Shown here in pieces: positions 2,005 through 49,602 of a stretch of DNA of 64,000 bases; the stretch's first letter is position 1, and each line of letters starts with the position of its first letter. The position numbers and the translations under genes were made by a program. The stretch is from Acidobacteriota bacterium (lineage in GTDB: Bacteria > Acidobacteriota > UBA890 > WLXD01): the NCBI GenBank assembly GCA_965205505.1, contig CBDBHB010000009.1, positions 1,920,001-1,984,000 of the forward strand, read 5' to 3'. The notes beneath the pieces are model-generated. The model saw only the letters and a list, made by a program, of their open reading frames with translations. It was not told the origin of the DNA and searched no databases.

Positions 2005-2237
2005 GGCTGTTCCGGATCTCCCAGGTGGAAAACGGTACGCCCAACTTTACGATGCGCCTGCCGCGATGGCCACGGGATCTCTCCAGGCAGGTCAATATCT
2101 CTTGTTGAGAGGAGGTGAGCCAGCTAGCCGGCCCTTCACGGTCGAAAGCGCGGCACGTCAGCAGTGCCGTTCGGGATACGCTTAGTTCGGTGCGAAGATT
2201 ATCGACGAAACAGTCGACATCAGGTGCGGGAGCGACC

Positions 2238-3134: not shown

Positions 3135-3156
3135 GCTTGCCGCTCGGAGGGTCGAA

Positions 3157-4128: not shown

Positions 4129-4139
4129 GACAAACTGAC

Positions 4140-21966: not shown

Positions 21967-22202
21967 TGAGGGGGCACGCCGCGGTAGCGGCGCAGCCGGC
22001 CCCGTTCTTACAGCTGCTGCGGCCCCAGCCCCCTCCGCGCTTCGAGACGGGTGGCCCGGTTGTCGCAACCTGGCCGGACTTGGCCGCTCCTGGCCACTCT
22101 TGTCCGCGCCCGCGTCTTGTGGAGGTGGCTAGGAGTTGGGTACGCTGCCGCCGGCCGCGCTCAACGCACGTGCCGATTGACTTGTTAGATCCGGGAGTAC
22201 CC

Positions 22203-24677
22203 ATGACCGATCGCCGCGCGCCTTTCAGTTCTGCCCTCGGCTCGATGCTTCGGATAGTCACCTGTCGCTTGGGGATCGCCTGCGGGTTGCTGCTGGGTCT
22301 GACGATCCCTGCATCGGGCGTTCTCGCCCAGGAATCGGCCCTGCTCGAGGTCTCCGGCCTCTACCAGCCGGTCGAGATCCTCGTCGACCGGTGGGGTATC
22401 AGCCATATCTATGCTGAGACCGAGCACGACCTGTTCTTCACCCAGGGCTGGAACGCGGCACGCGACCGGCTATTTCAACTCGAGCTCTGGCGCCGTCAGG
22501 CAACCGGGACCGTGGCCGAGATCCTCGGGCCGCGTGAGATCGAGCGCGATAGGGGAACTCGGCTGTTCAAGTTCCGTCGCAATCTGGAACAAGAGCTGAG
22601 CCACTATCACCCCAACGGGGTGGCGATCATCGGTGCCTACGTTGACGGCATCAACGCCTATGTCGAGCGAACTCGGCGTGATCCGAGCCTGTTGCCGATC
22701 GAGTTCGAGTTGCTCGGCATCAGCCCCGGGAGGTGGACGTCGGAGATCGTCATCTCGCGGCACCAGGGACTTCTAGGAAACATTGGTGCGGAGCTGCGTA
22801 CCGGTCGGTTGGTCGCCGAGCTGGGCGCGGCGAAGGTGAAGGACCTCGGTACGTACGGGCCCGGTGATCCGCTGCTGGCGCTCGACCCAGAGATTGATAG
22901 GGCGGCGCTCTCTGCCGACATCCTCGGCGTATACAACGCCTTCCGAGGCCGCGTGCGCTTCCGACCTGAGGACATCGTTGCCGAGCATCGCGGCGACGCC
23001 GAGTCCTTCGCCCGGCTCGAGCGTGCGGCCGAGGCCTCCAGCACGGCGCTCGCCTACGACCCGGAACTGGACGTCGGCTCCAACAACTGGGTGGTCAGCG
23101 GCGCCCGCTCCGAGAGCGGCTATCCGATCATGGCAAACGACCCCCATCGGGTGCAGGCGGCGCCGTCGTTGCGGTACTGGGTACACCTCGTGGGGCCCGG
23201 CTGGAACGTCATCGGTGGGGGCGAGCCCAGCCTCCCGGGTGTCTCGATCGGGCACAACGGCCACGGTGCCTGGGGGCTGACGGTGTTCCAGACCGACGCC
23301 GAGGATCTCTACGTCTACGAGACCAACCCGGCGAACACCAACGAGTATCGCTACCGTGGGGAGTGGCAGCCGATGACGGTGCTCGTCGAACAGATCCCGG
23401 TGAGCGGACAGAATGCACATCGCGCCGAGCTCAAGTACACGCGCCACGGCCCGGTGGTCTTCGAGGATCACAATCGCAACCTCGCATACGCGGTGCGCGC
23501 CGGCTGGATGGAGATCGGTGGGTCGCCTTACTTGGGCTCGTTGCGCATGGACCAGGCGACGACCTGGGAGGAGTTCGTCGAGGCGAGCAACTACTCCAAC
23601 ATCCCAGGCGAGAACATGGTCTGGGCGGGACGCGACGGCACCATCGGCTGGCAGGCCGTGGGTATCGCTCCCATACGTCGCAACTGGAGCGGCCTGGTAC
23701 CGGTCCCCGGCGACGGCCGCTATGAATGGGATGGCTACCTGCCGATCAAGGCCAAGCCCCATGTCGTGAACCCACCCGAGGGCTATTTCGCCACCGCCAA
23801 CAACGACCTGGTGCCACGTGACTACGAGTACATGGACGCGATCGGCTTCAGCTGGTCGGACCCGTATCGCTGGTTGCGGTTGGTTGAGGTGCTCGGCAGC
23901 GGCACACGCTTCTCGATCGCCGACATGATGCGCCTGCAGACCGACGAGCTGTCGATTCCGGCGCGGCAACTGGTGCCGCTGCTCGAGGAGGTCGAGGCTG
24001 GCGACGATCGCACCGAGCGCGCCCGGCAGCTTCTGCTCGAGTGGGACTACGTGGTCGATAAGCGGTCGGCCGCCGCCGGGCTGTACGTGGCCTGGGAAGC
24101 GCAGTTGCGCCGCAGCGTCAACGCCGCTCTGGTGCCGCCGGCAGCTCGAATGGGCCTGTCGTTGAAGAAGACGATTGACACGATCATGATCCCGCCCGGT
24201 ACGCTCGGAAGCGACCCCCTACGTGCCCGCGACCAGATCCTACTGGATGCTCTCGAGTCAGCGGTCGAAGTGTTGACTCAGAAGCTCGGGCCCGACCCTG
24301 CCGACTGGGTCTACGGCCAGTCCGACTACAAGCACGTCACCCTGCGCCACCCGTTGGGGACAGCGGTGAGCGAGTCGATGCGGGCCCGGCTCGAGGTCGG
24401 CCCGCACCCGCGCGGTGGCTACAGCTACACCGTCAACCAGACCAGCGGCGCCGACAACCAGACGTCCGGGGCGTCGTTCCGGATCATCATCGATACCGGC
24501 GACTGGGATCGCGGCGTGGGGATGAACACGCCCGGGCAGAGCGGCGATCCCGACTCACCCTTCTACCGCAACCTCTTCGAGGACTGGGCGAACGATCGGT
24601 TCCATCCAGTCTTTTATTCCCGGGATAAGATCGAGGCGGCGACGGCGATGCGAATCGAGCTCACGCCGGGAAGCTAG
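22203..24677 (+). CDS. Penicillin acylase family (S45) Ntn hydrolase
   Basis: DRWGISHIYA, DRLFQ, GSNNWVV catalytic Ser, ANDPH, TRHGP, PGQSG. Confidence 0.93.
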   Translation: MTDRRAPFSSALGSMLRIVTCRLGIACGLLLGLTIPASGVLAQESALLEVSGLYQPVEILVDRWGISHIYAETEHDLFFTQGWNAARDRLFQLELWRRQATGTVAEILGPREIERDRGTRLFKFRRNLEQELSHYHPNGVAIIGAYVDGINAYVERTRRDPSLLPIEFELLGISPGRWTSEIVISRHQGLLGNIGAELRTGRLVAELGAAKVKDLGTYGPGDPLLALDPEIDRAALSADILGVYNAFRGRVRFRPEDIVAEHRGDAESFARLERAAEASSTALAYDPELDVGSNNWVVSGARSESGYPIMANDPHRVQAAPSLRYWVHLVGPGWNVIGGGEPSLPGVSIGHNGHGAWGLTVFQTDAEDLYVYETNPANTNEYRYRGEWQPMTVLVEQIPVSGQNAHRAELKYTRHGPVVFEDHNRNLAYAVRAGWMEIGGSPYLGSLRMDQATTWEEFVEASNYSNIPGENMVWAGRDGTIGWQAVGIAPIRRNWSGLVPVPGDGRYEWDGYLPIKAKPHVVNPPEGYFATANNDLVPRDYEYMDAIGFSWSDPYRWLRLVEVLGSGTRFSIADMMRLQTDELSIPARQLVPLLEEVEAGDDRTERARQLLLEWDYVVDKRSAAAGLYVAWEAQLRRSVNAALVPPAARMGLSLKKTIDTIMIPPGTLGSDPLRARDQILLDALESAVEVLTQKLGPDPADWVYGQSDYKHVTLRHPLGTAVSESMRARLEVGPHPRGGYSYTVNQTSGADNQTSGASFRIIIDTGDWDRGVGMNTPGQSGDPDSPFYRNLFEDWANDRFHPVFYSRDKIEAATAMRIELTPGS

Positions 24678-24683
24678 AGGACA

Positions 24684-24772
24684 CTAGCAGTCCGTGGTGG
24701 AAGTGTGGCGGGTCTAGCGATACGGTCTTGCGAGGCGTAGGCACCAGGCCACCACTTTTCACCACGGACCGC
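24684..24772. mobile_element. Short MITE (TIR type C), preceded by a type-A end remnant AGGACACTAG
   Basis: CTAGCAGTCCGTGGTGGAAGTGTGGCGGG ... CCACCACTTTTCACCACGGAC inverted ends. Confidence 0.7.
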
Positions 24773-24829
24773 CACGCGGTTCGGGGTCGCTCTCGCAGCG
24801 ACCGGTTCAGAAACCAAGGAGCGGGAACC

Positions 24830-25285
24830 ATGAAGCGAGCGCTATTCGGCGTCACGGCAATCGGTTTGATGATCGTGGGCGCGCTGGCGGCGACGGCGGT
24901 CGCCGGCGAGGATGTTGTCAGGCCGGCAGAGCTGACCGCGGCGGAGATCGCGGGAGCCATCTTCGATCACCCGGAGATCGTGGTGACTACGCGCAACGAT
25001 CGCACCACGCACGATTTCATCACGCACCTGAGTAGCGACAAGAACTTCGTCAGCGGCATGTATCGCGCCACCGAGGGGCACTGGACCTACCACGACAAGC
25101 CGTACGGCGTCGACGAGTTCATGTACTTCATCGAGGGCAGCGTTACGCTGACCTCGGAGGACGGCACGGTGCAGGTGATCGAGGCCGGCGAAGCGGCGAC
25201 CATTCCGAAGGAATGGAAGGGCACCTGGGACACAATGGGCTATAGCAAGATCTACGTGATCTACTCGGCCGACGGAGTCGAGTAG
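24830..25285 (+). CDS. Secreted cupin (DUF861/EutQ-like)
   Basis: Signal peptide, DEFMYFIEGSVTL..DG, IPKEWKGTW, KIYVI. Confidence 0.85.
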   Translation: MKRALFGVTAIGLMIVGALAATAVAGEDVVRPAELTAAEIAGAIFDHPEIVVTTRNDRTTHDFITHLSSDKNFVSGMYRATEGHWTYHDKPYGVDEFMYFIEGSVTLTSEDGTVQVIEAGEAATIPKEWKGTWDTMGYSKIYVIYSADGVE

Positions 25286-26379
25286 GCGTCCAGATAGGCG
25301 TCGATCACCGGGTCGACGTAGTCGCCGCTGTCGAAGTCGCCGCGGTTCGAAAGCAGGATCACCGTTAGCCCGATCTCCGGATGTCGTGCGATGTGCGTCC
25401 GGAAGCCCACCCAGCTGCCACCGTGCGCGATGCGCTGGTAGCCACGGTAGTCGCCGATCGTGAAGCCGAAGCCGTAGCCGGTGTCCTCTCCGTTGTTGAG
25501 TCTCGCGGGCGTGAACGCTTCCTGCAGGGTTGCGCTGCTGACCAGCACCACTGTGTAGAGTGCCTGGTCCCACTTGTAGAGGTCCTCGAGGGTGGAGAAC
25601 ATGCTGCCCGAGCCGACGATGCCGTTGAGTGGGTGCTGGTCGTTCTCCACGTACCCATCACCGTCCGGGTTGTAACCGACGACGCGACGAGCGATGTGCG
25701 GACCAGTGTGATCGTGAATCAGGGAGTCGTCCATCTCCAGCCGAGCGAAGACGCGCTCGCGCATGAAATCAGCGAAGCCCATCCCGGACGCCGCTTCCAC
25801 CACTACCGCCAGCATGTCGTAGCCGGGATTGCTGTACTCGTAGCGCTCACCTGGCGGAAACAGTGGCTCACCCGTCTTCGCCAGCTGCGCTAGCGCGTCC
25901 GCGTTGGACGGCATGCCCCGCGAGGTGTCGATGTCGTTGTAATAGCCCGGCAGACCGCCCTGGTGGTGCAGGAGGTGTCGAATCGTGATGCCCTCGCCGT
26001 AGCGGGCCAGCTCGGGCAGGTGATGGGCGATGGGATCGTCGTAGTCCAAGTCGCCGCTCTCGGCCAGCAGCATGATCGCCATGGCGGTGAACTGCTTGGA
26101 GAAGGAACCGAGTCGGAACGTCGAGTCGGCGCCGATGGGGACCCCGTGTTCGATTTCCGCGTAGCCATAGCCAGCGCTGTGCACTACCTCGCCGTCGCGA
26201 ATCACCATGACCGCGACGCCAGGCTGAATGCCCTCGGTGTAGTGGGCGAACAGGGCATCGACCTGCGCCGACGGTTCCAACTGCGGGGTCTCGACCGCCG
26301 GGGCAGCACCACAGGCGAGCTCCAGGCACGACAGCAGAGCAGCCATCAGCGGGCGGCCGCGCGCCGGCCTGCTAGGCAT
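25261..26379 (-). CDS. Serine hydrolase, beta-lactamase family (S12)
   Basis: FRLGSFSKQF (SxxK), YSN, HGG. Confidence 0.92.
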   Translation of the reverse strand: MPSRPARGRPLMAALLSCLELACGAAPAVETPQLEPSAQVDALFAHYTEGIQPGVAVMVIRDGEVVHSAGYGYAEIEHGVPIGADSTFRLGSFSKQFTAMAIMLLAESGDLDYDDPIAHHLPELARYGEGITIRHLLHHQGGLPGYYNDIDTSRGMPSNADALAQLAKTGEPLFPPGERYEYSNPGYDMLAVVVEAASGMGFADFMRERVFARLEMDDSLIHDHTGPHIARRVVGYNPDGDGYVENDQHPLNGIVGSGSMFSTLEDLYKWDQALYTVVLVSSATLQEAFTPARLNNGEDTGYGFGFTIGDYRGYQRIAHGGSWVGFRTHIARHPEIGLTVILLSNRGDFDSGDYVDPVIDAYLDAYSTPSAE

Positions 26380-27772
26380 GCTGTCCTCCGTTGGCGCCCG
26401 CGGCGTCGAGGGCGTCGCGGATCATCCGCCGCTGCTGGGCGGGGTCAGACCAGCGCCGCTGGCTCTCGACGGGGAGCATGGGGATGGGGTCGAAATACAG
26501 GAAGTAGCCATCCTTGACCGACGGCGCCGTGTAGACGCTGATGCCAGTATCCGGATCGTAGTGTTCGTACGAGTGGATGTCGCGCTTGCCACCGCCGCCG
26601 GGCGCGTCGACGACCACGGTGGGGGTGTTGAATCCCGCCGTCACGCCACGCACGCGCTTCTCCACGGCGATGCCGGTGGCGACGGTGGTGCGTAGGTCCT
26701 CGACGCCCTTCACCAGATCGTGCATGTATACGTAGTATGGGTGCACGTTGATGTAGCTGAGCCGTTTGACCAGCCGCTGCATGGTGGCGACCTTGTCGTT
26801 CACCCCGCGCTGCATGACGCTCTGGTTGCGCGACGTCACGCCGCGCTCGAACAGCACGTTCATGGCGTCGTGCGTAATGCCGGTGATCTCGCGCCCAGTG
26901 TTGAAGTGCGTGTGCAGCACTACCTCCTTGCCGAGCTGCCTGCCGCGCTCGTGCACGTCGGTAAGCGCATCAACCCACTCGTGGTCGGTGAGTAGCTTCT
27001 GCGGCATGACCGCCGGGCCTTTGGTGGCGAACCGCATGCGGCGAATATGATCGATCTCCAACAGCGTCAAGCCGATGGTGCGGATCTGCTCGGCACGCAG
27101 GTTGTAGGCATCGCCACCGGAGATGACGATGTCCTCGAGCTCGGGGCGCGAGCGCACGTACTCGAACATGAGATCCCAGCGCTCGGTGTTGACCTTCAGC
27201 TGGACCTTCTCGACTTCCTCGGTGTCGATACCCACCGCGTAGCTTCGAGTGCAGAATCGGCAGTACACCGGACATGTATCGAGGGCGAGAAATAGCGCCT
27301 TGTCGGGATAGCGGTGCGTCAAGCCGGGCACCGGAGCGTCGGCCTGCTCGTGCAGCGAGTCGAGCTCTAGCTTGGGATGGTCGGGCAATAGCCGCGATCC
27401 GACCGGGATGAACTGGATACGTAGCGGGTCCTCGTAGGGGTCCTCCCAGTTGATCAGACTGAGAAGATAGGGGGAGACCCGTACGCTCATGGGCGAGTGC
27501 TCGAAGCCGTTGCGCACGTCCTCGATGAATGCGTCGCTCACCAGCCCGCTGAGCGCCGCCAGCAGTTTCTTCGGTGTCGTGATCGAGTTTCTCGCCTGCC
27601 ACAAGTGGTCGAGGAACTGCGGCTCCGAGACGTCGCCGTATGCCGGAACATCGCGCCAGAACTCGCCCCGAACCAGATCGCGATGCCCGAGCGCCGACGG
27701 ATCGACCGAGTCCTTGAGATACGGGGCGGCTGCGCCTTCTACTTCGGTGGTTTTCAGCGTGCTCGACGACAT
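26372..27772 (-). CDS. kamA: Lysine 2,3-aminomutase, KamA-family radical SAM
   Basis: HRYPDKALF, CPVYCRFCTR, SGGD, HFN, NQSV, PYYVYMHD, VVDAPGGGGK. Confidence 0.9.
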   Translation of the reverse strand: MSSSTLKTTEVEGAAAPYLKDSVDPSALGHRDLVRGEFWRDVPAYGDVSEPQFLDHLWQARNSITTPKKLLAALSGLVSDAFIEDVRNGFEHSPMSVRVSPYLLSLINWEDPYEDPLRIQFIPVGSRLLPDHPKLELDSLHEQADAPVPGLTHRYPDKALFLALDTCPVYCRFCTRSYAVGIDTEEVEKVQLKVNTERWDLMFEYVRSRPELEDIVISGGDAYNLRAEQIRTIGLTLLEIDHIRRMRFATKGPAVMPQKLLTDHEWVDALTDVHERGRQLGKEVVLHTHFNTGREITGITHDAMNVLFERGVTSRNQSVMQRGVNDKVATMQRLVKRLSYINVHPYYVYMHDLVKGVEDLRTTVATGIAVEKRVRGVTAGFNTPTVVVDAPGGGGKRDIHSYEHYDPDTGISVYTAPSVKDGYFLYFDPIPMLPVESQRRWSDPAQQRRMIRDALDAAGANGGQHA

Positions 27773-28045
27773 GATTCCGATCCTTTGCTTCACCTGGGGC
27801 TGATGAGACCAACTAGCGTGCCCCGGCAGGACGCAGGGGCACGGTCACGGCATCAGCGGTAGACGTCGGGCTGGTGAAGGATGTTCCGGTTGAACCACAT
27901 GTCAGGCCACGAGCGATTGGGTGGAGACGTGAGGCTAGCCGCCGAAGCAACGGCGTCGCGAAACGGACGGAGGCCGGACAAGTATCATCCCATCGCACCG
28001 TGAGCACGGGCAACCTCGGGGTGTTTCCCTACGCGGTCAGGCGTT

Positions 28046-28074
28046 TTGCAGCGACTTGACGACAGGCATACGAT
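28046..28074 (+). promoter_or_regulatory. Putative sigma-70 promoter of the ALDH operon
   Basis: TTGCAG-N17-TACGAT, about 75 bp upstream of the start. Confidence 0.45.
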
Positions 28075-28149
28075 GTCCGCCTGAGATCGGCCAGGCGATC
28101 CGGCTGATCAGGCGACGACGACTGAGTTATCCACCGAGAGGCGACCGTG

Positions 28150-29709
28150 ATGGCCGAAGAATTCCGCGTTACCTATGCGACGCTCGCAGCCGACCCGAAC
28201 ATGCACGCCGACTACGAGCGCGGCATCGAGGACGCCAAGGCGTGGCTCGGCCAGCGACATCCGTTCTATGTGAATGGGGAGGCTCGCGACGGTGATGGCT
28301 GGCACACGGAGGTGTCCCCGATCGACTCGGACATCGTGCTCGGCGAGTTCGCCAGAGCGACCCATCAGGACGTGAGCGATGCCATCGCTGCCGCCAAGGA
28401 CTACGCGCTGGCCTGGGACGCCCTGGGATACCAGAAGCGCGCCGAGATCCTCGACCGGGCCGCAGGGATCATCGAGGAGCGGCGCTACATGATGTCGGCG
28501 CTGATGGCCATGGAGGTGGGGAAGAATCGCCTCGAGGCCGTCGGCGACGTGCAGGAGTCGGCCGACCTCATCCGTTGGAACACACACGCGATGATCCAGG
28601 CCAAGGGCTTCAAGGTGCCGATGCAGCCGCTGGGCGAGGCCGGCGACTACTACGACATCATGCGCCCCTACGGCGTCTGGGGGGTCATCAGCCCCTTCAA
28701 CTTCCCGATGGCGCTGGCGGCAGGCCCGTCGTCGGCGGCGCTGGCAGCCGGGAACACGGTGGTCTTCAAGCCTGCTTCACAGGGCGCGGCAACCGGGCAC
28801 ATGCTCTACGAGGCCTATCGCGAGGCCGGCATGCCACCCGCGGCGTTCCAGTTGTTGTCGGGGTCTGGGGAGGTCGTCGGCGACGGCATCGCCACCAGCC
28901 CCGACGTAAAGGGCCTCACGTTTACCGGCTCCTACGAAGTCGGGATGAAGATCTACAGGGAATTCGCCAAGGACTACCCCAAGCCGGCTATCTGCGAGAT
29001 GGGCGGCAAGAACCCGACGATCGTCACCAGGCACGCCGATATCGAAAAGGCCACCGATGGCGTGTGGCGCAGTGCGTTCGGTCTCCAGGGGCAGAAGTGC
29101 TCGGCTAACTCGCGGGTGTACGTGGAGCGCGAGCTGTACGACGAGTTCGTCGCCAAGTTGAGGGAAAAGACCGAGGCCCTGGTGGTCGGCAACCCGCTTG
29201 AGCAGGGCGTGTTTGTTGGACCGGTGATCAACCAGGCGGCTGTCGACACTTTCGAGGAAGCCGCCGAGGAAGCCAGACGGACAGGTGAGGTGATCGCCGG
29301 CGGAGAGGTGATGACCGACGGCGAATTGGCACGCGGCACCTACGTGCAGCCGACAGTGGTACATGTGCCACGCGACTCCTGGCTGTGGAAGCGCGAGCTG
29401 TTCGTGCCGTTCGTGGCGGTGGATGCGGTGGACTCGCTCGACGAGGCGATCGAGCTCGCCAACGACACCGAGTACGGCCTTACGGCGGGTCTGTTCAGCG
29501 AGGATCAAGCCGAGATCGACCGCTTCTGTAGCGAGATCGAGGCCGGCGTCATCTACATCAACCGCGCCTCCGGAGCCACCACCGGTGCTTGGCCGGGAGC
29601 TCAGCCGTTCGGCGGCTGGAAGGGTTCCGGGACGATGGGTAAGGCCGCCGGCGGTCCCTACTACGTGCTTCAGTACATGCGCGAACAATCCAGGACGGTG
29701 ATCGGATGA
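28150..29709 (+). CDS. Aldehyde dehydrogenase, P5C dehydrogenase (RocA/PruA)-like
   Basis: EVGKN..EA.GD, ISPFNFP, FTGS, EMGGKN, SAFGLQGQKCSA, TTGA.PG.QPFGGWK.SG. Confidence 0.9.
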   Translation: MAEEFRVTYATLAADPNMHADYERGIEDAKAWLGQRHPFYVNGEARDGDGWHTEVSPIDSDIVLGEFARATHQDVSDAIAAAKDYALAWDALGYQKRAEILDRAAGIIEERRYMMSALMAMEVGKNRLEAVGDVQESADLIRWNTHAMIQAKGFKVPMQPLGEAGDYYDIMRPYGVWGVISPFNFPMALAAGPSSAALAAGNTVVFKPASQGAATGHMLYEAYREAGMPPAAFQLLSGSGEVVGDGIATSPDVKGLTFTGSYEVGMKIYREFAKDYPKPAICEMGGKNPTIVTRHADIEKATDGVWRSAFGLQGQKCSANSRVYVERELYDEFVAKLREKTEALVVGNPLEQGVFVGPVINQAAVDTFEEAAEEARRTGEVIAGGEVMTDGELARGTYVQPTVVHVPRDSWLWKRELFVPFVAVDAVDSLDEAIELANDTEYGLTAGLFSEDQAEIDRFCSEIEAGVIYINRASGATTGAWPGAQPFGGWKGSGTMGKAAGGPYYVLQYMREQSRTVIG

Positions 29710-31046
29710 GCAGCACCGAGGTTTCTATCGCAGATCTCGCCGGCGTAGCGGCTCCACTAATCGTCGTCGAGCCGCCTGGTCCCAAGGCTCAGGCGATTGT
29801 TGCGCGCGACCAGCGGGTGACCTCACCGTCGCTGCCGCGCGCATATCCGTTTGCCCCGCGGCGCGGGAGCGGCTCGGTACTCGAGGACGTCGACGGCAAC
29901 CTGTTCCTCGACTTGAATGCCGGCATCGCGGTCAATGCCACGGGACATTCGCACCCCGCCGTGGTCGAGGCGATTCAGCAGCAGGCGTCCGAGTTGCTGC
30001 ACTACTCGGCGTCGGACTTCTTCCTGCCAATCTACTCCGACGTTTGTCAGCGGCTCGACGAGATCTCGCCGTTCTCAGGGCCGTCGCGCGCTTTTCTCAC
30101 CAACTCGGGTACCGAGGCCGTGGAGGCGGCCCTGAAGCTGGCACGCTACGTCACCGGCAGGCACAACGTGATTGCGTTCTACGGTGCCTTCCACGGTCGC
30201 TCGTACGGCAGCGTCTCGTTGACAGCTTCCAAAGCCAAGTACCACCGGCGTTTCGGACCCCTGCTTCCGGGCGTGTACCACGCTCCGTATGGCGACGGCT
30301 ATGGATGGGGTTTGGGCCTGGCGGAAAGCACCGGGGGATTGGCGAGCATCGATTACATCGAGAAGGTGCTTTTCAAGCACGTTCTGGCAGCCGACGACGT
30401 GGCGGCGATCTTCGTCGAGCCGGTGCAGGGCGAAGGCGGCTACATCTTCCCACCGCAGGAATTCCTGCCCGAGCTGCGGCGGCTGTGCGACGAGCACGGC
30501 ATCCTGCTGGTGGCCGACGAGGTGCAGTCGGGTATGGGCCGTACCGGTAAGACGTGGGCCATCGAGCACTTCGGCGTCGAGCCCGACATCATCCTGTCGG
30601 GCAAGGGCATCGCCAGCGGCATGCCGCTGGGCGCGATGATCGCGCGCGAGGATCTGATGTCCTGGGAGTTCGGTGCGCACGGCTCCACCTACGGGGGATC
30701 GCCGACGCCGTGCGCAGCCGCGCTTGCGACCATCGATCTGATCGAGAACGGCCTCAAGCAGAACGCCGCCGACGTCGGGGCCTATCTGATGGACGGGCTG
30801 CGCGAGCTGCAGTCGAGGCACGACGTGATTCGCGATCTGCGCGGGCTGGGCCTGATGATCGGCGTCGAGTTGCCGAGCCACGACGTGATGGGTCGGATCG
30901 AAAAAGAGGCCTTCAAGCGCGGTTTGCTGATGCTGGGCTGCGGCGACAACGTGATCCGCATCACGCCACCGCTGGTCTTCACTCGACAGCAGGTCGACCG
31001 GGGTCTCGAGGTGTTCGAAGAGGTCCTCGACGCGGTCGACGGGTAG
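29706..31046 (+). CDS. Class III aminotransferase, GabT/omega-amino acid type
   Basis: DVDGN.FLD.NAGIAV, NSGTEAVE, FHGRS, EPVQGEGG, DEVQSGMGRTG, GKGIASG. Confidence 0.92.
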   Translation: MSSTEVSIADLAGVAAPLIVVEPPGPKAQAIVARDQRVTSPSLPRAYPFAPRRGSGSVLEDVDGNLFLDLNAGIAVNATGHSHPAVVEAIQQQASELLHYSASDFFLPIYSDVCQRLDEISPFSGPSRAFLTNSGTEAVEAALKLARYVTGRHNVIAFYGAFHGRSYGSVSLTASKAKYHRRFGPLLPGVYHAPYGDGYGWGLGLAESTGGLASIDYIEKVLFKHVLAADDVAAIFVEPVQGEGGYIFPPQEFLPELRRLCDEHGILLVADEVQSGMGRTGKTWAIEHFGVEPDIILSGKGIASGMPLGAMIAREDLMSWEFGAHGSTYGGSPTPCAAALATIDLIENGLKQNAADVGAYLMDGLRELQSRHDVIRDLRGLGLMIGVELPSHDVMGRIEKEAFKRGLLMLGCGDNVIRITPPLVFTRQQVDRGLEVFEEVLDAVDG

Positions 31047-31054
31047 GGGCGACA

Positions 31055-31972
31055 GTGGGCAAGGTCGTTTCCATGCAGGACGCCGTGCGCGATCTCGTGC
31101 GCGACAGCGACACGGTGGCGATCGAGGGGTTCACCCACCTCATCTGCTTTGCGGCCGGGCACGAGATCATCCGGCAGCGCAAGCGCGACCTGACGCTGGC
31201 GCGCATGACCCCCGATGTGACCTACGACCAGATGATCGCCGCCGGTGTGGCCAGCAAACTGATCTTCTCGTGGTTAGGCAACCCTGGCGTCGGGTCGCTG
31301 CACGCTATTCGCCGTCGTGTAGAGAGGGCTGACCCGGCGCCGCTCGAGATCGAGGAGTACAGCCATTTCGGCATGGTGTGCCGCTACGTGGCAGGGGCCT
31401 CGCGACTGCCGTTCATGCCGCTGCGCTCGTACGAGGAGTCCGACATCCCGTCGGTCAACGATCAGATCCGCTGGGTCGACAACCCCTTTGGCAGCGGTCG
31501 GATCGCCGCCGTGCCGCCGCTGAACGCAGACGTCGCGATCATCCACGCGCAGCGTGCTGACGCTGACGGCAACGCACAAATCTGGGGCCTGCTCGGCTGC
31601 CAGAAGGAGGCCGCGTTCGGTGCCGGGCGCGTCATCCTGGTGGTGGAGGAGCTGGTCAGCGAGCAGACGATCCGCCGCGACCCCAACCGCACGATGATCC
31701 CGGGGATCAAGGTCGATGCGGTTGTTGTCGAGCCGTTCGGGTGTCACCCCTCCTACGTTCAGGGGTACTACGACCGCGACAATGATTTCTACGTAAAGTG
31801 GGACGAGATCGCGCGCGATCCGGACACCCTCGCCACCTGGCTCCAGGAGTGGGTCTACGACCTGTCGTGCCATGCCGACTACGTGGAGAAGTTCGGCGGC
31901 GCCTACTGGGATCGCCTACGCCCAACTGGCCCGGCTCTTTCCGGCGAGGTCGACTATGGAGAGTACGCGTGA
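31055..31972 (+). CDS. catI: CoA-transferase subunit A, 3-oxoadipate CoA-transferase CatI/GctA type
   Basis: EGFTHLI..AAGHEIIRQ, RMTPD..YDQ, FSW.GNPGVGSLH, PSYVQGYYDRDN, as recalled for CatI/PcaI-type enzymes. Confidence 0.8.
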   Translation: MGKVVSMQDAVRDLVRDSDTVAIEGFTHLICFAAGHEIIRQRKRDLTLARMTPDVTYDQMIAAGVASKLIFSWLGNPGVGSLHAIRRRVERADPAPLEIEEYSHFGMVCRYVAGASRLPFMPLRSYEESDIPSVNDQIRWVDNPFGSGRIAAVPPLNADVAIIHAQRADADGNAQIWGLLGCQKEAAFGAGRVILVVEELVSEQTIRRDPNRTMIPGIKVDAVVVEPFGCHPSYVQGYYDRDNDFYVKWDEIARDPDTLATWLQEWVYDLSCHADYVEKFGGAYWDRLRPTGPALSGEVDYGEYA

Positions 31973-32751
31973 GCGCCGCGCTGCCTGACGTGGGCTTCTC
32001 ACGCAAGGAAATGATGATCGTGCAGTCGGCCCGCGCGCTCGAGGGTGAAAAGGTCTGCTTCGTGGGCGTGGGCATGCCGAACATCGCGGTGAATCTCGCC
32101 AAGCGCACTGTCTCGCCCAGTATCCAGATGGTCTACGAGGCGGGTGTATTCGGCGCAGCGCCGGCGCGGCTACCGCTGTCGATCGGTGACCCGACGCTGG
32201 TCACCGGGGCGACGGCGGCGACGAGCATGTTCGAGCTCTTCGCCTACTACCTGGCGGCTGGCCTTATCGATGTGGGCTTCCTGCAGGGAGCCCAGATCGA
32301 CCGCTACGGCAACCTCAACAGCACCGTCATTGGCGACTATGAGGAGCCCAAGGTGCGTTTGCCCGGCTCGGGAGGCGCCTGTGAGATCGCCATCAACGCC
32401 CGGCGCATCTTCATCATCATGCCGCAGAGTCGGCGTTCGTTCGTGCAGCAGCTGAGCTTCCAGACCTCGCCGGGACACAATCCCGATCCACAGGTCGAGC
32501 GCGCCCGTGGCTGGCTCGGGACCGGGCCGCAGGTGGTCATCACGGATCTCGGCGAGTACCACTTCGAGGGGGCCACCGGCGAGATGACGCTTACTTCGCT
32601 CCACCCCGGCGTGTCGCTGGACGAGATCCGCCGCAATACCGGCTGGGAAATGAAAGTGGCTGACGATCTGCGCGACACGCCTGCGCCCAGCGCCGAGGAG
32701 CTACGGCTGATCCGCGAGGAGCTCGATGCCGACGGGATCTACTCGCGATGA
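31969..32751 (+). CDS. catJ: CoA-transferase subunit B, CatJ/GctB type
   Basis: CFVGVG.P, YEAG, LPLSIGD, GAQIDRYGNLN, VRLPGSGGA.EIA. Confidence 0.8.
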   Translation: MSAALPDVGFSRKEMMIVQSARALEGEKVCFVGVGMPNIAVNLAKRTVSPSIQMVYEAGVFGAAPARLPLSIGDPTLVTGATAATSMFELFAYYLAAGLIDVGFLQGAQIDRYGNLNSTVIGDYEEPKVRLPGSGGACEIAINARRIFIIMPQSRRSFVQQLSFQTSPGHNPDPQVERARGWLGTGPQVVITDLGEYHFEGATGEMTLTSLHPGVSLDEIRRNTGWEMKVADDLRDTPAPSAEELRLIREELDADGIYSR

Positions 32752-34064
32752 GCCACATTTTCCGGCGGGCGGCCGCGGACATGCCGGCGGCGTGCGCCGC
32801 CGAGGGTGTATGGATCACTGACGAGCACGGCAACCGCTATCTCGACGACGCCGGCGGCGCCGTGGTGGTGAATGTCGGCCACGGCGTGCCCGAGATCCGG
32901 CGCGCCATGCTGGAGCAGGTCGAACGCGTGTCGTACGTACACGGCACCGAGTTCACCACTGCCGCTCTCGAGGAGCTGGGGGACAAGCTCGCCCCCCTGC
33001 TACCCATGGAGGCGCCGTCAATCTACCCGGTTTCGGGCGGGTCAGAGGCTGTCGAGACCGCGTTCAAGATGGCGAGGGCCTTCCACCTGGCAAACGGAGA
33101 GGATGGTCGGCACAAGATCATCAGCCGCTGGGGCTCTTACCACGGCAACACCCGGGCGGCCCTCGCCGTCAGCGGTCGCGCGCCGCTGCGCGCCCCGTAC
33201 CTACCCTGTCTCGATAGCGCGATCCACGTGCCGGCGGTATATGAGTATCGCTGCCCGATGCCGACGCATCCGCGCGCCTGCGGCGCGGCGCACGCAGCGG
33301 AGCTCGACCGGGCCATTACGGAAGAGGGCGCCGATACGGTAGCGGGCTTCATCGCCGAGCCGATCGGCGGTGCGACGCTCGGTGCCGTCGTGCCACCGGA
33401 CGACTACTGGCCGGCGATCGCCCAGGTCTGCCAGCGCCACGGCGTCCTGCTCATCGCCGACGAGGTGATGACCGGTTTCGGTAGAACGGGAGCTTGGTTC
33501 GGTGTCGACCACTGGGATGTGCAGCCCGATCTCATCGCCAGCGGCAAGGGCTGCTCGTCGGGCTACTGGCCCCTCGGGCTGACGATCGCCAGCGGGCGCG
33601 TGGCGGCCGCACTGGACGAGGGCGGGTTCGTGCACGGCTTCACCTACTCGCACCATGCCGTCGGCGCGGCCGTCGGGGTAGCGGTGATCGATCGTCTGGT
33701 GGCAGGCGGCCTTGTAGCGCAGTCGCGCGACAAAGGGGAACGTCTCAAGGCCCTGCTCGTGGAGCAATTGTCGAGCAGCCCGTACGTGGGCGAGGTGCGC
33801 GGCCGCGGCCTGCTCGTGGCAGTGGAGCTAGTCGCGGATCGCCACACGCGCGAGCCCTTCCCGCGATCGTCCCGGGTCACCGAGCGCGTGCTCGCGGCGT
33901 GCAAGGCAGAGGGCTTGCTGGTCTATCCGGGAACCGGCATGGTCAACGGCACCGACGGCGACGCGATCCTGTTCGGCCCGCCGTTCGTCATCTCCGACAG
34001 CGAGTTGGATCAGGTAGTCGAGATCACCGCGCAGGTGCTGGGAGCCCTCGAGACGTTGCCATAG
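32748..34064 (+). CDS. Class III aminotransferase, YodT-like
   Basis: YLD..GGAVV.NVGHG, SGGSEAVETA.K, ISRW.SYHG, AEPIGGA, DEVMTG.GRTG, GLLVYP..G...G..GDA. Confidence 0.88.
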   Translation: MSHIFRRAAADMPAACAAEGVWITDEHGNRYLDDAGGAVVVNVGHGVPEIRRAMLEQVERVSYVHGTEFTTAALEELGDKLAPLLPMEAPSIYPVSGGSEAVETAFKMARAFHLANGEDGRHKIISRWGSYHGNTRAALAVSGRAPLRAPYLPCLDSAIHVPAVYEYRCPMPTHPRACGAAHAAELDRAITEEGADTVAGFIAEPIGGATLGAVVPPDDYWPAIAQVCQRHGVLLIADEVMTGFGRTGAWFGVDHWDVQPDLIASGKGCSSGYWPLGLTIASGRVAAALDEGGFVHGFTYSHHAVGAAVGVAVIDRLVAGGLVAQSRDKGERLKALLVEQLSSSPYVGEVRGRGLLVAVELVADRHTREPFPRSSRVTERVLAACKAEGLLVYPGTGMVNGTDGDAILFGPPFVISDSELDQVVEITAQVLGALETLP

Positions 34065-34107: not shown

Positions 34108-37100
34108 TCACTCCTCCTCTTCGTCCTCTCCCTCGGGCTTCGGCGGGCGCGGGCGATCGAGCCAGAGCCGTACTCCACCGCTCCAGTGGCCAGTGCCATT
34201 GCGGTCGACGCTGTGCTCGCCCTCGTACAGGTAGTCGAGGATTGCCTTGTCCCACTGCAGGCCGGCGGTGGCCACGATCTTCATCCAGTCACCGTAGGCG
34301 GTCTCGTCGGGGGCCTCGGTGCCGCCGGTCCAGATCGTCACCTTCGGGTTGAAACCACCTCCGAAGGCGCCGCCTTCGCCGGATCGGCCGCCCTTGAGCG
34401 GCATCTGCACGTTGACCCCATCGGTCATGTCCTGTCGATAGATGATGGGCTCGTAGTCGCTTCCGTAGCGGTTGTATCGATCGTAGGCGCGCTCGTTCAT
34501 CGCCCGCACATCCTCGGCGGCGTTGATGTAGCGGGTGACGTAGTCACGGATGCTGAAGGCGGCGTCCTTGTGGCGCGGGAACTTGGGATCGTCCAGGTAG
34601 CCGAAGCCGGGAATGAACCAGCCTCGATTGACGCTCCAGTTGCGCTCGGTGATGCGGCCCCGACGTACCAGCCCGGCGTACTCCGAGAACAGCTGCACCA
34701 CTTCGTGCGACGGGTACCCGTGCGGGTTGAGAAAGATATCCGGGAGCCAGGTTCTCCATAGTGTCGGTCGGACCTTGGACTCCGGGTAGATGGGCATGTC
34801 CTCGCGACCCCCGTTCGTCGCATCCTGACCGAGCGCGCCGAGGTAGCCGGCGTGGAGGATGAAATCGGGAGTGATCTCGTACAGGTCGTAGGCTAGCTGG
34901 GCCCCATCCGGGTTGGTGAACGGATGAATGATCACGTTCACATCGAGGAGCTTTTTCTTGAACTCCTCGTCGGTCAGCAGCAGCTCGGCGAGCTTCAGCA
35001 CGTGGCTGGTCGACGAGACCTCGTTGGCATGCTGGCGGGCCGAGTAGACCACCGTCGGCTTGTGCGTCGTGAGCTTGTAGCGCGACCAGTGGCTGGCCTC
35101 GATGGGGGGCATCAAGAGCATCGCCCATATGTCCTTGCCGAGGTAGCTGCGGCCTGCGTGGTACATCGTCGCTTCGGGGAACGTCGACATGCGCGCCAGA
35201 ATCGCGTGCCCCTCGGGCGGCGGGATGGGTGTGTCCCACTGCACCATCTCCTCGCCCGCATAGCTGTAGCCGGCCCCCGGAAGCAATGCCGCGATGGTCG
35301 GATAGGCAGCCGGCGTGCCGTTGGCGTCGAGCGTGGCGACCTCCTGCGTGTCGCGATCGATCTCCCACTCCCACCCGGCGGCGAGACGAATCGTTCGTAG
35401 GCCATGGAACGCGAGCTCGGTGTCGTAGAGGCTGTGAGCGCGCAGCTCCTCGAGGTTGTCGATCATCGACGTTGCCTGGACAGCGCTCATGACGCGGCGG
35501 TCGACCTGGAACTCGTCGGCCTGTTGCAACAGGTCGGCGCGTTGGTCGTCCTCGAAGTCCACCTTGACCCGCATGTCGAGGCTGTCGAGGCCCACCTGCC
35601 CGGCGCGCACGGTCGCGGCGAGGGCGCTAGGTCGTTCCACCGTAACCACAGGGATATCGCGACGTAGCTGTCCGTTGGTGCCGTCGGCGTCGGTATAGTC
35701 GATTATTACGGCAGGTCGGCTGGTGGCGAATCCAGTCAGGCGGATCTTCGCCCAACCGGCCTCGCCACTACTGTTGGGCCGCATGATCGGGATAACCCGT
35801 CCGATGTGGCTGAGCTCCTCACCCCGCGCCATGCGCCCCAGGATGCGGAAGAAGAAGAGGGTGGGGAAGTAGATCTCCTCGTGGAGAGAGTCGAGCGACG
35901 AGATATACTCCTTGTCGATCCCGAGCAGATAGTCGGGCTCGCTCAGGCTTACCTCGACGGTGAGCTCACCGAAGTACGGCGCGTCGGCGCTCCGCGGGTT
36001 GCCGTCGTGTACCTCCGTGACATGGTCGTAGAGTCCGCTCAGCGTTTTCGACTGATAGTGGTCCCAGAAACTCTCGATGTCGGTGACGATGCGCTCATCG
36101 ATCAAGGTACTGTCGCCGCTGTACGCGGCGATCCAGCCGGTGGAGACGCGAACTAGCTCGTAGTCGTCGAAACGCTCGTAGTACGGCTGCAGGACATATC
36201 TCGGCTCGAACGTCCTTCGTAATAACTCGGCACCGCTCGTTGAGGTCACGACGACCTCGTAGGTGGGAGCGTCGATGGGTGCCATCTGGAAGTCGATGAG
36301 CTCCGGGTCCAACGACAGGTCGGCCGACATGACCTCGTCGACCGGCCAGATCTCCTTGAGCCAACGGACCTTGCTGTACATTGCCTGCTGCGGCCAGTCC
36401 TCCGGCGGACCGGTCTCGGCGAAGTTCACGCGGATGCCGCCGATTGCCTGATCGGCGCCGCCCGACTGCAGCCGCTGGAGCTCCGGTACGATCACCTCAC
36501 GTAGCCACGAGAAGCCCTGTTTGACGGCCGACAGCACGGTCACTTCCGTGGCGTTCGCGTCGGCTCCTGCTTCGATCAGCAGATCGCGGGCTTGCTGGGC
36601 AATCCGTTGGCGCACCTCGTGCGGCTCGCTGAGCCGCGCTTCCATACGCACCGGCTGACCGCGGCGCACGCCCGGGACAACCTGCGAACGGAATCGGGTC
36701 CAGAAAGCTTCGACCTCTGAGGGAATTTCGATCTGCTCCTCGCTGAGCACGGTGGCCTTCTGGACGTCGCGATCGTCCAGGTGCACCGAGAGGTTGGCGA
36801 TGTTCAGAGGTGCGAGCCGCTGGCGTACGATCGCTTCCAGCCCCGGCTCGATCTTCTCGAGCGAGACCGTGACATCGGCGGAGTCGATCTGCTCGCCCTG
36901 CAGCTCCTCGACCATGCGGTCGATCTTGTAGAGTGCGGTGGCTGCCTGGCCTCCCGGGCTGCGTTGCGACAGGAATCGCCACACCGCCAGCTCAACTGCG
37001 TCGACCGTCGACCGATCCTGGCCGCGCTCCGACAGGTTGGGGAAGCGCTCCGAAAGCTGCTCCAGCGCCCGCGCCACACCCGCGGCGTCACCGCCGGTAA

Positions 37101-38401
37101 CGACGACCGCACGCTTGTCGCCGAAAGCGCTGGGCACCACCTCGATGAGTCCCTCACCGGCTGCGAGCGCCTCGATGCGTCCCGGCGCCAGCTTGTCACC
37201 GTCCACGAGGTCGGCGATCAGCGGATGATCGAGACCGATGATCACCAGCGTCGGCTCGCTCCCGGCCTTATCGATCTGATCCGGGGTGCGACCGAGAGGC
37301 AAGGTGACTCCTGCCGACTCCAGACCGAGGCGCGCGGCCAGGTCGATCGTTCCATCCACACCCGGACCGGAGGCGCTCAGCACCGCATCGATGCGGTCGG
37401 GAATCACGTTGTTGTCGCTGTCTCCGAGCAAGCCCTCGGCGTCGAACAGCGTCGACAGGTCGAGGTCATCCTTGCCCCCCGACCCCGGACGCGCTGGGGT
37501 GGGACGCGACGGAGCCTCCGGCTCAACGCGTGGGATCTCCACAGCGACCGCGGCTCTGTCTAGCGCCGTCAACGCAACGTGCAGGCGCTCAGCACCGGCG
37601 TACGACAGCAGCTCGGACGGGTCGTTGTCGTCGCCCTCATCGTCATCTTCCACGGCGCTGGCGAGGCGTCGCGACGGCACCTCCGTCAGGGCGGTTCGCG
37701 CCCCTTCGACGTCGGACGCGGACAGACGCACGACCACGTCTACCGAGGAGAAGACGCCGTCGTTGCCGTCCTCGGCGTGGATTGTCGACACGTTGACCGC
37801 CTGCACCACGATCCCTTCGTCACCCAGGTATGCCGCGATATCCGCCGTCAGGTCGGCGAGCGTGGTGCCCTTGGCCGTGCCCACGTGCGGCAGGCGACCG
37901 GCAAAGGCTGCTGCAGCGGCGCGGGTGCCGGCGTCGTCGGCTCCGGCGATCACCAGCCAGTCCCGCCCTTGGGAGCGGATCCGCGTGACCAGCCCGGCGC
38001 CCGGATCCAGCTCGTCGAGGGTCGGGACGCTGAGCCCGAGGCGTTGGGTGCCGCCGCGCCCGACGACGATGCCGACGCTGCCCTCCGGCGCGTCTCGGGG
38101 TACCGGAATGTCCATGGCCATGGTCTCGAATCCGAGCCGAGCTGCGATATCGACGGCCGCCGCCAGGTCGGAATCCGAGCGTTCCAGGCCTAGAACGATG
38201 CCGGTGTCGACGAAGTCGACGACCTCATCGCCGTTTCGATCCTGGAAGATCAACCCGGTATCGAACAGGCTCTCGAGGCCCGCCGCGGCTGCCGCCTGCT
38301 TGGCCGCCAGCCGGTGTCGGGACGCCAACGGCGCCAAGGATCGCGACGAATGCGACGACGAGAGGTCTCCAGAGGCCATTCATGATGCGGGGTCGGATCA
38401 T
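34108..38401 (-). CDS. Giant secreted M14 zinc carboxypeptidase-family protein; signal peptide separated by a frameshift
   Basis: C-terminal ARQHANE, NPDG, LNPHG zinc motifs; two N-terminal repeats; GGAGA RBS with ATG 38401 encodes a signal peptide out of frame with the 1423 aa ORF. Confidence 0.8.
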
Positions 38402-38410
38402 CGTTGTCTC

Positions 38411-38446
38411 CTAGCAGGGTGCTGAAAAACTCTGGTGGGTCTGGTT
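38411..38446. repeat. Solo MITE end (TIR type B)
   Basis: CTAGCAGGGTGCTGAAAAACTCTGGTGGGTCTGGTT, matching the ends at 52724 and 55730. Confidence 0.8.
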
Positions 38447-38517
38447 GTGGCTAGGTTCGTCGTCGTGAATCGCTGCTTCTCGCGAGTTGCTGCCGTCAGC
38501 TTGCTGGCGCCGGAACC

Positions 38518-42083: not shown

Positions 42084-42086
42084 GAC

Positions 42087-49360: not shown

Positions 49361-49602
49361 CGAACGTTACCTCTGCTCGAAACGACTCCAGATGCGGACT
49401 GTAGTCATGCGGCCCTGCAGCAAGCAAGGGATAGCCTCTGACATGTGCATCGGAGCGTTCAGGTAGCAGCTGAGTCGGCGTTTGGTGGCGGCCCGATTCG
49501 TCCTCTACACTGCCGACCTCACGCTGTCTCGGACGGCGTATCGGGACCCACGCGGTCGGCGTTCCGATCGGCGACGACAGGTACCGAAGAATGGAGCGGT
49601 CG

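Follow-up and report, generated by a model that had tools for sequence, protein, structure and literature searches.

Which compound is degraded by an operon that couples an aldehyde dehydrogenase, two aminotransferases and a two-subunit CoA-transferase, and does the lysine 2,3-aminomutase-like gene beside it supply that compound? The question is raised by a locus on contig CBDBHB010000009.1 of an Acidobacteriota genome (G000; assembly of 5.98 Mb, 96% complete, 65% G+C), within a stretch of 64 kb that was analysed as a whole and is called the window here. A kamA-family gene stands divergent from five genes in the order aldehyde dehydrogenase (ALDH), class III aminotransferase AT1, CoA-transferase subunits A and B (CoAA and CoAB) and class III aminotransferase AT2. 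A preliminary description of this DNA had read the whole as a new lysine catabolic route from beta-lysine to beta-ketoadipate. We find that the five genes are a widespread autonomous module. They would form a self-contained catabolic module whose substrate is a beta,omega-diamino acid, probably beta-lysine (3,6-diaminohexanoate), and whose product is 3-oxoadipyl-CoA.

Enzymes of the operon and the proposed route

The best models for the ALDH were those of RocA-type delta1-pyrroline-5-carboxylate (P5C) dehydrogenases, with 412.9 bits on NF002852 (cut-off 648) and 403.3 bits on TIGR01237 (cut-off 659.65). They led the next family (332 bits) by more than 70 bits, and the models of succinate-semialdehyde and aminobutyraldehyde dehydrogenases gave 296 and 265 bits. 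The nearest structures in the PDB were 3RJL (8e-90) and 3QAN (4e-85). RocA-type P5C dehydrogenases are therefore the top models and the top structures, in line with the P5C-dehydrogenase-like enzyme of the preliminary description.

AT1 passed NF004426 (PRK05769) with 577.5 bits against a cut-off of 552, and scored 373 bits on gamma-aminobutyrate (GABA) transaminase models. Its nearest solved structure was 7VNO of Pyrococcus horikoshii (8e-116), which we take to be PH1423, an aminotransferase acting on the terminal amine of ornithine and lysine. According to a table in PMC9986279, PH1423 is an ornithine delta-aminotransferase whose further substrates are L- and D-lysine, 5-aminovalerate, 6-aminohexanoate and GABA. 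AT2 stayed below the cut-offs of its best models, NF005685 (454 against 485 bits) and NF005375 (416 against 535 bits), the second of which matches above cut-off in one control genome. The nearest PDB entries were 6IO1, 3I4J and 6GWI (3e-82 to 3e-80), the third being named a putrescine aminotransferase, and the polyamine:pyruvate transaminase 9J4Z was also close. The Kat-type acyl-CoA aminotransferase was considered as a relative of AT2 and set aside; Kat is HemL-like and hence a mechanistic precedent only.

Beta-lysine is proposed as the substrate because it is reached when 3-oxoadipate is traced back through two amine-to-carbonyl steps and one aldehyde oxidation. The other possible starting compound, 4,6-diaminohexanoate, is to our knowledge not known as a natural one. 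AT1 would take off the terminal amine of beta-lysine, and the 3-amino-6-oxohexanoate formed, whose cyclic form would be the one-carbon homologue of P5C, would be oxidised to 3-aminoadipate by the P5C-dehydrogenase-like ALDH. AT2 would turn the beta-amine into a ketone, and the GctAB-like transferase would form the CoA thioester. The order of these two steps may be reversed, so that the substrate of AT2 would be either the free acid or its CoA ester. In a passage of PMC3149608, the class III aminotransferase of the Kat variant of lysine fermentation acts on a beta-aminoacyl-CoA, and this precedent makes CoA transfer before transamination plausible here. Finally, a thiolase encoded elsewhere would yield succinyl-CoA and acetyl-CoA. 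In one genus, the adjacent KamA-family aminomutase would feed L-lysine into this sequence, giving a B12-independent and acetylation-independent route. Family assignments, gene order and translational coupling, the distribution and the pca and PcaF surroundings of the transferase clade are shown by the data; we infer the substrates, the 3-aminoadipate intermediate, the order of steps and the link to KamA from the sequences. In our judgement, the chance that the operon leads from beta-lysine or 3-aminoadipate to 3-oxoadipyl-CoA is somewhat better than even.

Many routes of lysine catabolism are known; we know of none that passes via 3-aminoadipate to 3-oxoadipate. In the full-text library searched, no paper has beta-lysine together with 3-aminoadipate or with words in oxoadip-. 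3-Aminoadipic acid is named in few papers, and these are, by their titles and the openings of their abstracts, metabolomics or meteorite studies. Known enzyme families thus appear to be arranged into an undescribed route, as had been suspected. If the proposal is true, bacterial disposal of the beta-lysine of streptothricin-type antibiotics, poly-beta-lysine and osmolytes would be explained. It would also provide three enzymes of potential use in beta-amino-acid and adipate-related biocatalysis, namely an epsilon-aminotransferase for beta-lysine, a dehydrogenase for 3-amino-6-oxohexanoate and an aminotransferase for 3-aminoadipate.

The CoA-transferase and the distribution of the operon

CoAA and CoAB have their best solved match in glutaconate CoA-transferase 1POI (1.5e-46 for 1POI_A and 1.8e-41 for 1POI_B). 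They show the pattern of GctAB-like family I enzymes, with subunits of about 300 and 260 aa and a catalytic Glu in subunit B, which is conserved as E57 of CoAB aligned with the Glu of the VESG motif. The PcaIJ/ScoAB subfamily models TIGR02429 and TIGR02428 failed, with 20.3 against 128.5 bits for subunit A and 36.6 against 243.55 bits for subunit B. The pair is thus like GctAB of Acidaminococcus fermentans (1POI) in best match, sizes and catalytic residue, whereas no hydroxyglutarate-pathway genes lie near it in the window, and its relatives stand in a context of 3-oxoadipate, not of glutaconate or 2-hydroxyglutarate. CatIJ of Pseudomonas B13 is said to have similarly large subunits.

This context was read from a search for CoAA in 401 Acidobacteriota genomes. 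Outside the genus of the window, 31 genomes have a copy 49-66% identical; 30 of these copies and 7 more distant ones gave 37 non-genus loci. Relatives 52-53% identical sit inside canonical protocatechuate clusters. The gene order in L139 is CoAA-CoAB-PcaF-PcaH-PcaG-PcaB-PcaD-PcaC-PobA. In L137 the transferase has PcaH, PcaG and PcaB as neighbours, and in L140 it has PcaH. A thiolase match in the same locus as a homologous transferase occurred in 15 of the 120 loci searched. The pcaF equivalog cut-off (597 bits) was passed by five of 10 thiolases (L137, 697; L139, 685; L140, 658; L142, 640; L212, 601.5 bits); three more (L116, L230, L208) had a pcaF-family best match at 521-560 bits, and those of L125 and L129 were generic. 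In two loci, L142 (G161) and L116 (G280), a PcaF-type thiolase stands together with the ALDH, both aminotransferases and the CoA-transferase. The window's own transferase has neither a thiolase nor a pca gene nearby.

In a quick CoAA tree (117 sequences, with support from the Shimodaira-Hasegawa-like approximate likelihood ratio test only), a group of 110 rows (support 97) unites the operon-type sequences with the pca-type clade, itself of 10 rows (support 100). The genus of the window (support 100) falls inside a clade of 72 metagenome rows (support 99), away from other Acidobacteriota, and the window's CoAA nests in the operon-type clade. The GctAB-like clade is predicted, by genomic context and not by family models, to be the 3-oxoadipate CoA-transferase of these bacteria, a prediction that we regard as well supported. 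3-Oxoadipyl-CoA as the end product is also well supported, because relatives of the transferase lie in pca clusters and some operon copies contain PcaF-type thiolases. The preliminary description had called the transferase CatI/CatJ-type and had proposed a tree to separate CatIJ from GctAB. The pca and PcaF context of the relatives agrees with that assignment, and the tree unites pca-type with operon-type sequences; the sequence itself is GctAB-like and fails the PcaIJ/ScoAB models.

The genome of the window contains a single copy of CoAA and no equivalog of PcaH (27 against 296 bits), PcaD (158 against 256 bits) or PcaF (five thiolases, the best at 382 against 597 bits). As these equivalogs are missing from the genome and no aromatic genes lie at the locus, the transferase is not explained by aromatic catabolism, as had been argued from the locus before; the check for a PcaF-like thiolase elsewhere in the genome, which had been proposed there, gives five thiolases and none above the pcaF cut-off. 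The likeness to the end-steps of the beta-ketoadipate pathway (PcaIJ/CatIJ and PcaF) consists in the CoAA relatives beside PcaF equivalogs in pca clusters, and the difference in a window locus without ring-cleavage or lactone genes and in the GctAB-like transferase. If the proposed route is true, these end-steps, known as an aromatic sink, would also serve an amino acid, that is, a non-aromatic entry.

In metagenomes, the CoAA scan yielded at least 592 confirmed relatives among at least 598 pattern matches. The best 80 loci were analysed, of which 27, with at least 5 kb upstream of CoAA, were informative for the gene order. The nearest relatives outside the genus are 75-84% identical, and those with a named source are Actinomycetota metagenome-assembled genomes. 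At 45% identity or more, the best 80 loci contain CoAB in 74, AT1 in 46, ALDH in 30 and AT2 in 27 cases. ALDH-AT1 stand directly before CoAA, which is the window's order, in 20 of the 27 informative loci, and all five genes are present in 11 of them. Among the 30 Acidobacteriota loci with a 49-66% identical copy, six have ALDH, AT1, a second aminotransferase and the transferase (L116, L123, L130, L132, L142, L144), and L125 has both aminotransferases with the transferase and no ALDH match. If the proposed reactions are right, a function would be given to a module found hundreds of times in metagenomes.

An AT2-like gene accompanies CoAA-CoAB alone, without ALDH and AT1, in seven of the same 30 loci (L117, L121, L122, L124, L126, L129, L131). 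This would be expected if the operon held two separate sub-modules, with AT1 and ALDH working as a RocD/RocA-like pair (ornithine to glutamate, or lysine to 2-aminoadipate) and CoAA-CoAB-AT2 serving another beta-amino acid. The likeness to RocD/RocA ornithine catabolism is that AT1 has an ornithine aminotransferase and the ALDH has P5C dehydrogenases as closest relatives, and that beta-lysine shares the 1,4 amine spacing of ornithine. The window differs from it in that the pair shares its operon with a CoA-transferase of 3-oxoadipate type and another aminotransferase, all five genes being translationally coupled. The ALDH is moreover far under the P5C dehydrogenase equivalog cut-off (403 against 660 bits), and the recurrence of ALDH-AT1 directly before CoAA in the metagenomes points the same way. 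We consider such a division of the operon quite improbable.

The main rival to the beta-lysine route is one in which ordinary diamines (cadaverine, putrescine) or omega-amino acids (5-aminovalerate, 6-aminohexanoate) are degraded to glutarate or adipate, which the GctAB-like transferase would activate to glutaryl- or adipyl-CoA. AT2 would be a diamine:pyruvate aminotransferase and AT1 a GabT/DavT-type enzyme, the ALDH would oxidise both aldehydes, and the adjacency of kamA would be due to chance. The closeness of AT2 to 6GWI (3e-80) and 9J4Z, the 373 bits of AT1 on GABA transaminase models, the closest match of the transferase to glutaconate CoA-transferase and the occurrence of the operon almost everywhere without kamA all agree with this, as do the 5-aminovalerate, 6-aminohexanoate and GABA listed among the substrates of PH1423 in the table of PMC9986279. 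Yet a single ALDH would have to oxidise two different aldehydes, and its scores favour P5C dehydrogenase (413 bits) over succinate-semialdehyde (296) and aminobutyraldehyde dehydrogenase (265). A glutarate route needs neither the pca clusters around relatives of the transferase nor the PcaF-type thiolases in operon copies, and no glutaryl-CoA dehydrogenase or beta-oxidation genes were present at the operon loci examined. We hold the diamine route to be unlikely.

The KamA-family protein and its possible tie to the operon

The KamA-family protein passed the subfamily cut-off of TIGR00238 (224.4 against 199.2 bits). Its best model was TIGR03820, the equivalog of lysine 2,3-aminomutase (AblA/KamA), with 253.9 bits, which is far short of the cut-off of 525.4, followed by glutamate aminomutase (197), arginine aminomutase (188) and EpmB (154 bits). 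In the alignment with 2A5H, C167/C171/C174 and K396 correspond to the CxxxCxxC cysteines C125/C129/C132 and to K337, and R176, D352 and D389 to R134, D293 and D330 (2A5H numbers confirmed by counting along the alignment). In 2A5H, R134 binds the lysine carboxylate, D293 and D330 hold the epsilon-ammonium group and K337 binds pyridoxal 5'-phosphate (PLP). The cluster cysteines, R176, D352, D389 and K396 are invariant across 19 members of the KamA clade. The protein is thus probably a lysine 2,3-aminomutase of an uncharacterised subfamily.

An orthologue 62% identical in another genome, G376 (L237, G376:C160, 7640-13113), is followed 6 nt on by a 1342-aa synthetase of the Pls/PosA homopolymer family, which scores 562 against 423 bits on TIGR02353. 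A passage of PMC10522769, citing Yamanaka 2022, describes the epsilon-poly-beta-lysine cluster as a lysine 2,3-aminomutase beside a Pls homologue. L237 is therefore a candidate poly-beta-lysine-type cluster in an Acidobacteriota genome. Since it resembles the published pair, it supports, by analogy, beta-lysine as the product of the KamA clade; it also shows that this clade serves biosynthesis in at least one lineage. As a clade-wide role the pairing was rejected, being found in L237 only, one of 84 loci (83 of the kamA clade and the window), and no Pls/PosA synthetase is encoded in the window's own genome, which sets it apart from epsilon-poly-beta-lysine producers. Among 79 Myxococcota loci of the kamA clade, no conserved neighbour recurred in more than seven, in a comparison with crude gene calling whose clusters were polluted by antisense open reading frames (ORFs).

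A second KamA-family subtype of about 460-480 aa was observed in L233-L235 (G057, G041, G294; families f31 and f33). With 33-37% identity to the KamA of the window, it scores 170-184 bits on TIGR00238, below the cut-off, and lies far from the CoA-transferase operon copies of the same genomes.

Two known systems use a lysine 2,3-aminomutase for catabolism. The route of the B. subtilis yodT-yodS-yodR-yodQ-yodP-kamA genes and of Pseudomonas B4 goes via N6-acetyl-beta-lysine and is aerobic and B12-independent. The locus resembles it in having KamA beside a class III aminotransferase and a two-subunit CoA-transferase, and the proposed route would be aerobic and B12-independent as well. The differences are that the locus lacks an acetyltransferase and a deacetylase and has an additional ALDH and a second aminotransferase. 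Its transferase is GctAB-like and predicted to be of 3-oxoadipate type, unlike the ScoAB-type one of yod, and the proposed end is 3-oxoadipyl-CoA rather than 4-acetamidobutyryl-CoA and acetoacetate. The AblB-type beta-lysine N6-acetyltransferase (TIGR03827) has no counterpart in the locus, and its best match in the genome reached 21.5 against 205.1 bits.

The clostridial and fusobacterial fermentation (KamA, KamDE, Kdd, Kce and Kal, or the Kat variant) likewise starts with lysine 2,3-aminomutase. The KamD family (PF09043) had no match in the genome, in a search that also matched in none of 14 control genomes. The three beta-keto acid cleavage enzyme (BKACE) genes of the genome all lie outside the kamA-operon locus, and AT2, unlike Kat, is not HemL-like. 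The earlier statement that the locus contains no KamDE, acetyltransferase or deacetylase holds for KamD, acetyltransferases and deacetylases among the genes of the locus.

The pairing of kamA with the operon is a feature of the genus. In the family, all five genomes of the genus, with G000 among them, have kamA and CoAA, and none of six genomes from four other genera has them. The divergent arrangement is kept in three same-genus genomes with an intact locus, while in G130 both genes are on short separate contigs. The sister genus (G153) retains the M14 peptidase and hydantoinase B genes and none of the ten genes to their left, which may reflect one or several insertions. To judge by its nearest relatives, the operon of the genus looks acquired from an Actinomycetota-like source. 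Acquisition of kamA, and from a different donor than CoAA, is only suggested by the identities, the nearest named CoAA relatives being Actinomycetota (75-80%) and the nearest named kamA being Myxococcota (67-74%).

Several results weigh against a route in which kamA is a part of the system. The ALDH, AT2 and KamA all lie below their nearest equivalog cut-offs (525.4 bits for KamA on TIGR03820), and the genome has no PcaF equivalog. No kamA was found in the best 80 metagenome loci of the operon or in the 37 non-genus Acidobacteriota loci, where 24 of the 30 with a 49-66% copy reach at least 5 kb upstream. In the reverse direction, the best 80 loci of the kamA clade (79 mostly Myxococcota records, 67-74% identical, and L003; 51 of the 80 with at least 6.5 kb on the relevant side) contain the operon once, in L003, which belongs to the window's genus. 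A close CoAA is absent from all five Myxococcota genomes with the kamA clade, one of which has a 30% match, and G376, G372 and G352, with kamA orthologues 58-64% identical, have no CoAA match at E 1e-30. The adjacency is therefore known from one genus, whose KamA proteins are 88-94% identical, and the scheme does not account for where the many operons lacking a kamA neighbour would get their beta-lysine. No riboswitch or shared regulator for kamA and the operon was found, and the hydrolase coupled to kamA is apparently exported, which does not fit a cytosolic pathway.

Some KamA-family match is present in 131 of the 401 genomes (a tally that includes the unpublished G049 and G152). Of seven non-genus genomes with the fuller operon, six have a KamA-family match elsewhere; they come from three families only, with different KamA subtypes, and are no test of linkage. 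The preliminary description had treated kamA as integral and had held that an operon found mostly without kamA would speak against the route. As to adjacency this is what the loci show, so that the scheme from beta-lysine to 3-oxoadipyl-CoA retains its end product, the enzyme affinities of AT1 and ALDH and the lysine-binding residues of KamA, and has no support for kamA as an integral part.

The same results could mean that the operon catabolises external beta-lysine or 3-aminoadipate, and that KamA with the exported hydrolase serves another purpose, for example a secreted or cell-envelope product, the two sharing only a genus-specific segment. The distinct nearest relatives of CoAA, inside a metagenome clade, and of kamA would fit this, and so would the ten genes missing beside M14-HydB in G153, the signal-like N-terminus of the hydrolase coupled to kamA, the biosynthetic synthetase served by the G376 orthologue and the five Myxococcota genomes with the kamA clade and no operon. 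On the other hand, the predicted product of KamA is the very substrate that the operon's enzyme set fits, the divergent layout with its shared control region of 374 bp is kept in the three intact same-genus loci, and the genome has neither a Pls/PosA synthetase nor an AblB acetyltransferase as another user of beta-lysine. We rate a KamA unconnected with the operon as rather unlikely, below the diamine route and above the two sub-modules. That the operon acts on beta-lysine or 3-aminoadipate as proposed and that KamA feeds it from L-lysine in this genus is possible, with a chance somewhat short of even. Only slightly less probable is the fullest form of the proposal, a widespread undescribed module from beta-lysine via 3-aminoadipate to 3-oxoadipyl-CoA, joined in one genus to a separately arrived KamA as a pathway in mid-assembly, which would complete an aerobic L-lysine route free of B12 and acetylation. 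If true, the genus-specific kamA junction would be a clear case of a pathway assembled from adjacent horizontally acquired parts.

Layout of the locus and neighbouring genes

All six genes of the preliminary description were found again at the same coordinates (Table 1), and a seventh, the PF00144 hydrolase, is attached to kamA. Pfam E-values across the genes range from 7e-133 (Aldedh) to 3e-18 (CoA_trans).

Table 1. Genes and other features of the kamA-operon locus in the window
Feature	Position	Strand	Evidence or remark
PF00144 serine hydrolase (beta-lactamase/D-aminopeptidase family)	25261..26379	-	Pfam 1.4e-71
KamA-family radical S-adenosylmethionine/PLP aminomutase, 466 aa	26372..27772	-	TIGR00238
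Divergent intergenic region, 374 bp	27773..28146	.	between kamA and ALDH
15-codon upstream ORF, about 80 nt before kamA (minor feature)	27853..27900	-	conserved in genus
ALDH, 520 aa; proposed 3-amino-6-oxohexanoate dehydrogenase	28147..29709	+	PF00171 7e-133
Class III aminotransferase AT1, 446 aa; proposed beta-lysine epsilon-aminotransferase	29706..31046	+	NF004426
CoA-transferase subunit A (CoAA), 305 aa, GctA-like; proposed 3-oxoadipate CoA-transferase	31055..31972	+	1POI_A
CoA-transferase subunit B (CoAB), 260 aa, GctB-like, catalytic Glu	31969..32751	+	1POI_B
Class III aminotransferase AT2, 438 aa, omega/beta-transaminase type; proposed 3-aminoadipate or 3-aminoadipyl-CoA aminotransferase	32748..34064	+	NF005685

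The junctions ALDH/AT1 and CoAB/AT2 are ATGA overlaps and CoAA/CoAB is a GTGA overlap. CoAA starts with GTG 8 nt past the AT1 stop; database copies begin six codons downstream (ATG 31073, giving 299 aa). From these overlapping or abutting starts and stops, ALDH-AT1-CoAA-CoAB-AT2 is, as judged by sequence, a translationally coupled operon, and the earlier account of a tight operon divergent from kamA is reproduced in genes, coordinates and overlaps. Within the genus, AT2 of the window is 68-69% identical to its counterparts in L114 and L115 (G069 and G275), and the other operon genes are 84-90% identical; either faster evolution or replacement of AT2 may account for this.

The start of kamA is ATG 27772, with AAGGA upstream, and database copies are likewise of 466 aa. 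The gene is not a lone one, since its stop overlaps the start of the PF00144 hydrolase by 8 nt (ATGCCTAG), with GGAGGA upstream; the two are probably co-transcribed, and the preliminary description had missed the hydrolase. The hydrolase has an N-terminus that resembles a signal peptide, and the NCBIfam model that fits it best, D-aminopeptidase, gives 115 bits (cut-off 443). It stays beside kamA in the three same-genus loci L113-L115; elsewhere only a 31-32% identical PF00144 match was seen near kamA, in two of 79 other kamA loci. A run of genes of amide/lactam-hydrolase type at 20983-26379 adjoins kamA, and comprises the genes of a metallo-beta-lactamase-fold protein, of a penicillin amidase (PF01804, 665 bits), of a cupin whose N-terminus is signal-like and of the PF00144 hydrolase. 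The genus keeps every one of these genes; in the sister genus (G153), the 14 kb upstream of M14 yielded none of them.

The region between kamA and ALDH has a mean identity of 74% in an alignment of four genus members. Its conserved blocks include a promoter-like TTGCAG-N17-TACGAT near 28040-28075, spotted by eye. A simple scan of 24.5-34.5 kb gave no consensus sigma-70 promoters, terminator-like sites there showed no excess over shuffled sequence, and Rfam matched neither a riboswitch nor any other known RNA, whether in the whole window or between kamA and ALDH. The peptide of the 15-codon ORF is kept with conservative changes in four of four genus genomes, in a spacer only 74% identical, and could be a leader peptide; a clade-wide leader was rejected, as the ORF is absent upstream of kamA in 79 other clade loci and is confined to the genus.

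A different neighbourhood was seen at L116 (G280:C7), where a class A beta-lactamase-like gene (PF13354), an S58 (DmpA/BapA-type) peptidase and an SSF transporter (1258-5047) are divergent from the operon. S58 is the family to which beta-aminopeptidases belong. This trio was considered as a recurrent neighbour and rejected, occurring in L116 only among 120 loci and the window.

Further away in the window, one of the BKACE genes (PF05853, 308 bits; 2115-3134) is followed by a 3-hydroxyacyl-CoA dehydrogenase-like gene on the plus strand (2115-4128), 24 kb from the locus. On the minus strand at 34108-43580 lie the genes of a 1423-aa protein with an M14 carboxypeptidase domain, of hydantoinase/oxoprolinase B and A subunits and of a sodium:solute symporter. 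A full-length gene of the MTTB family (trimethylamine methyltransferase-like; 49591-51126, plus strand) has no internal stop and presumably encodes a non-pyrrolysine member. Finally, 7703-10309 and 13718-15955 (plus strand) encode paralogous large proteins with CBM9-like and DUF5916 domains.

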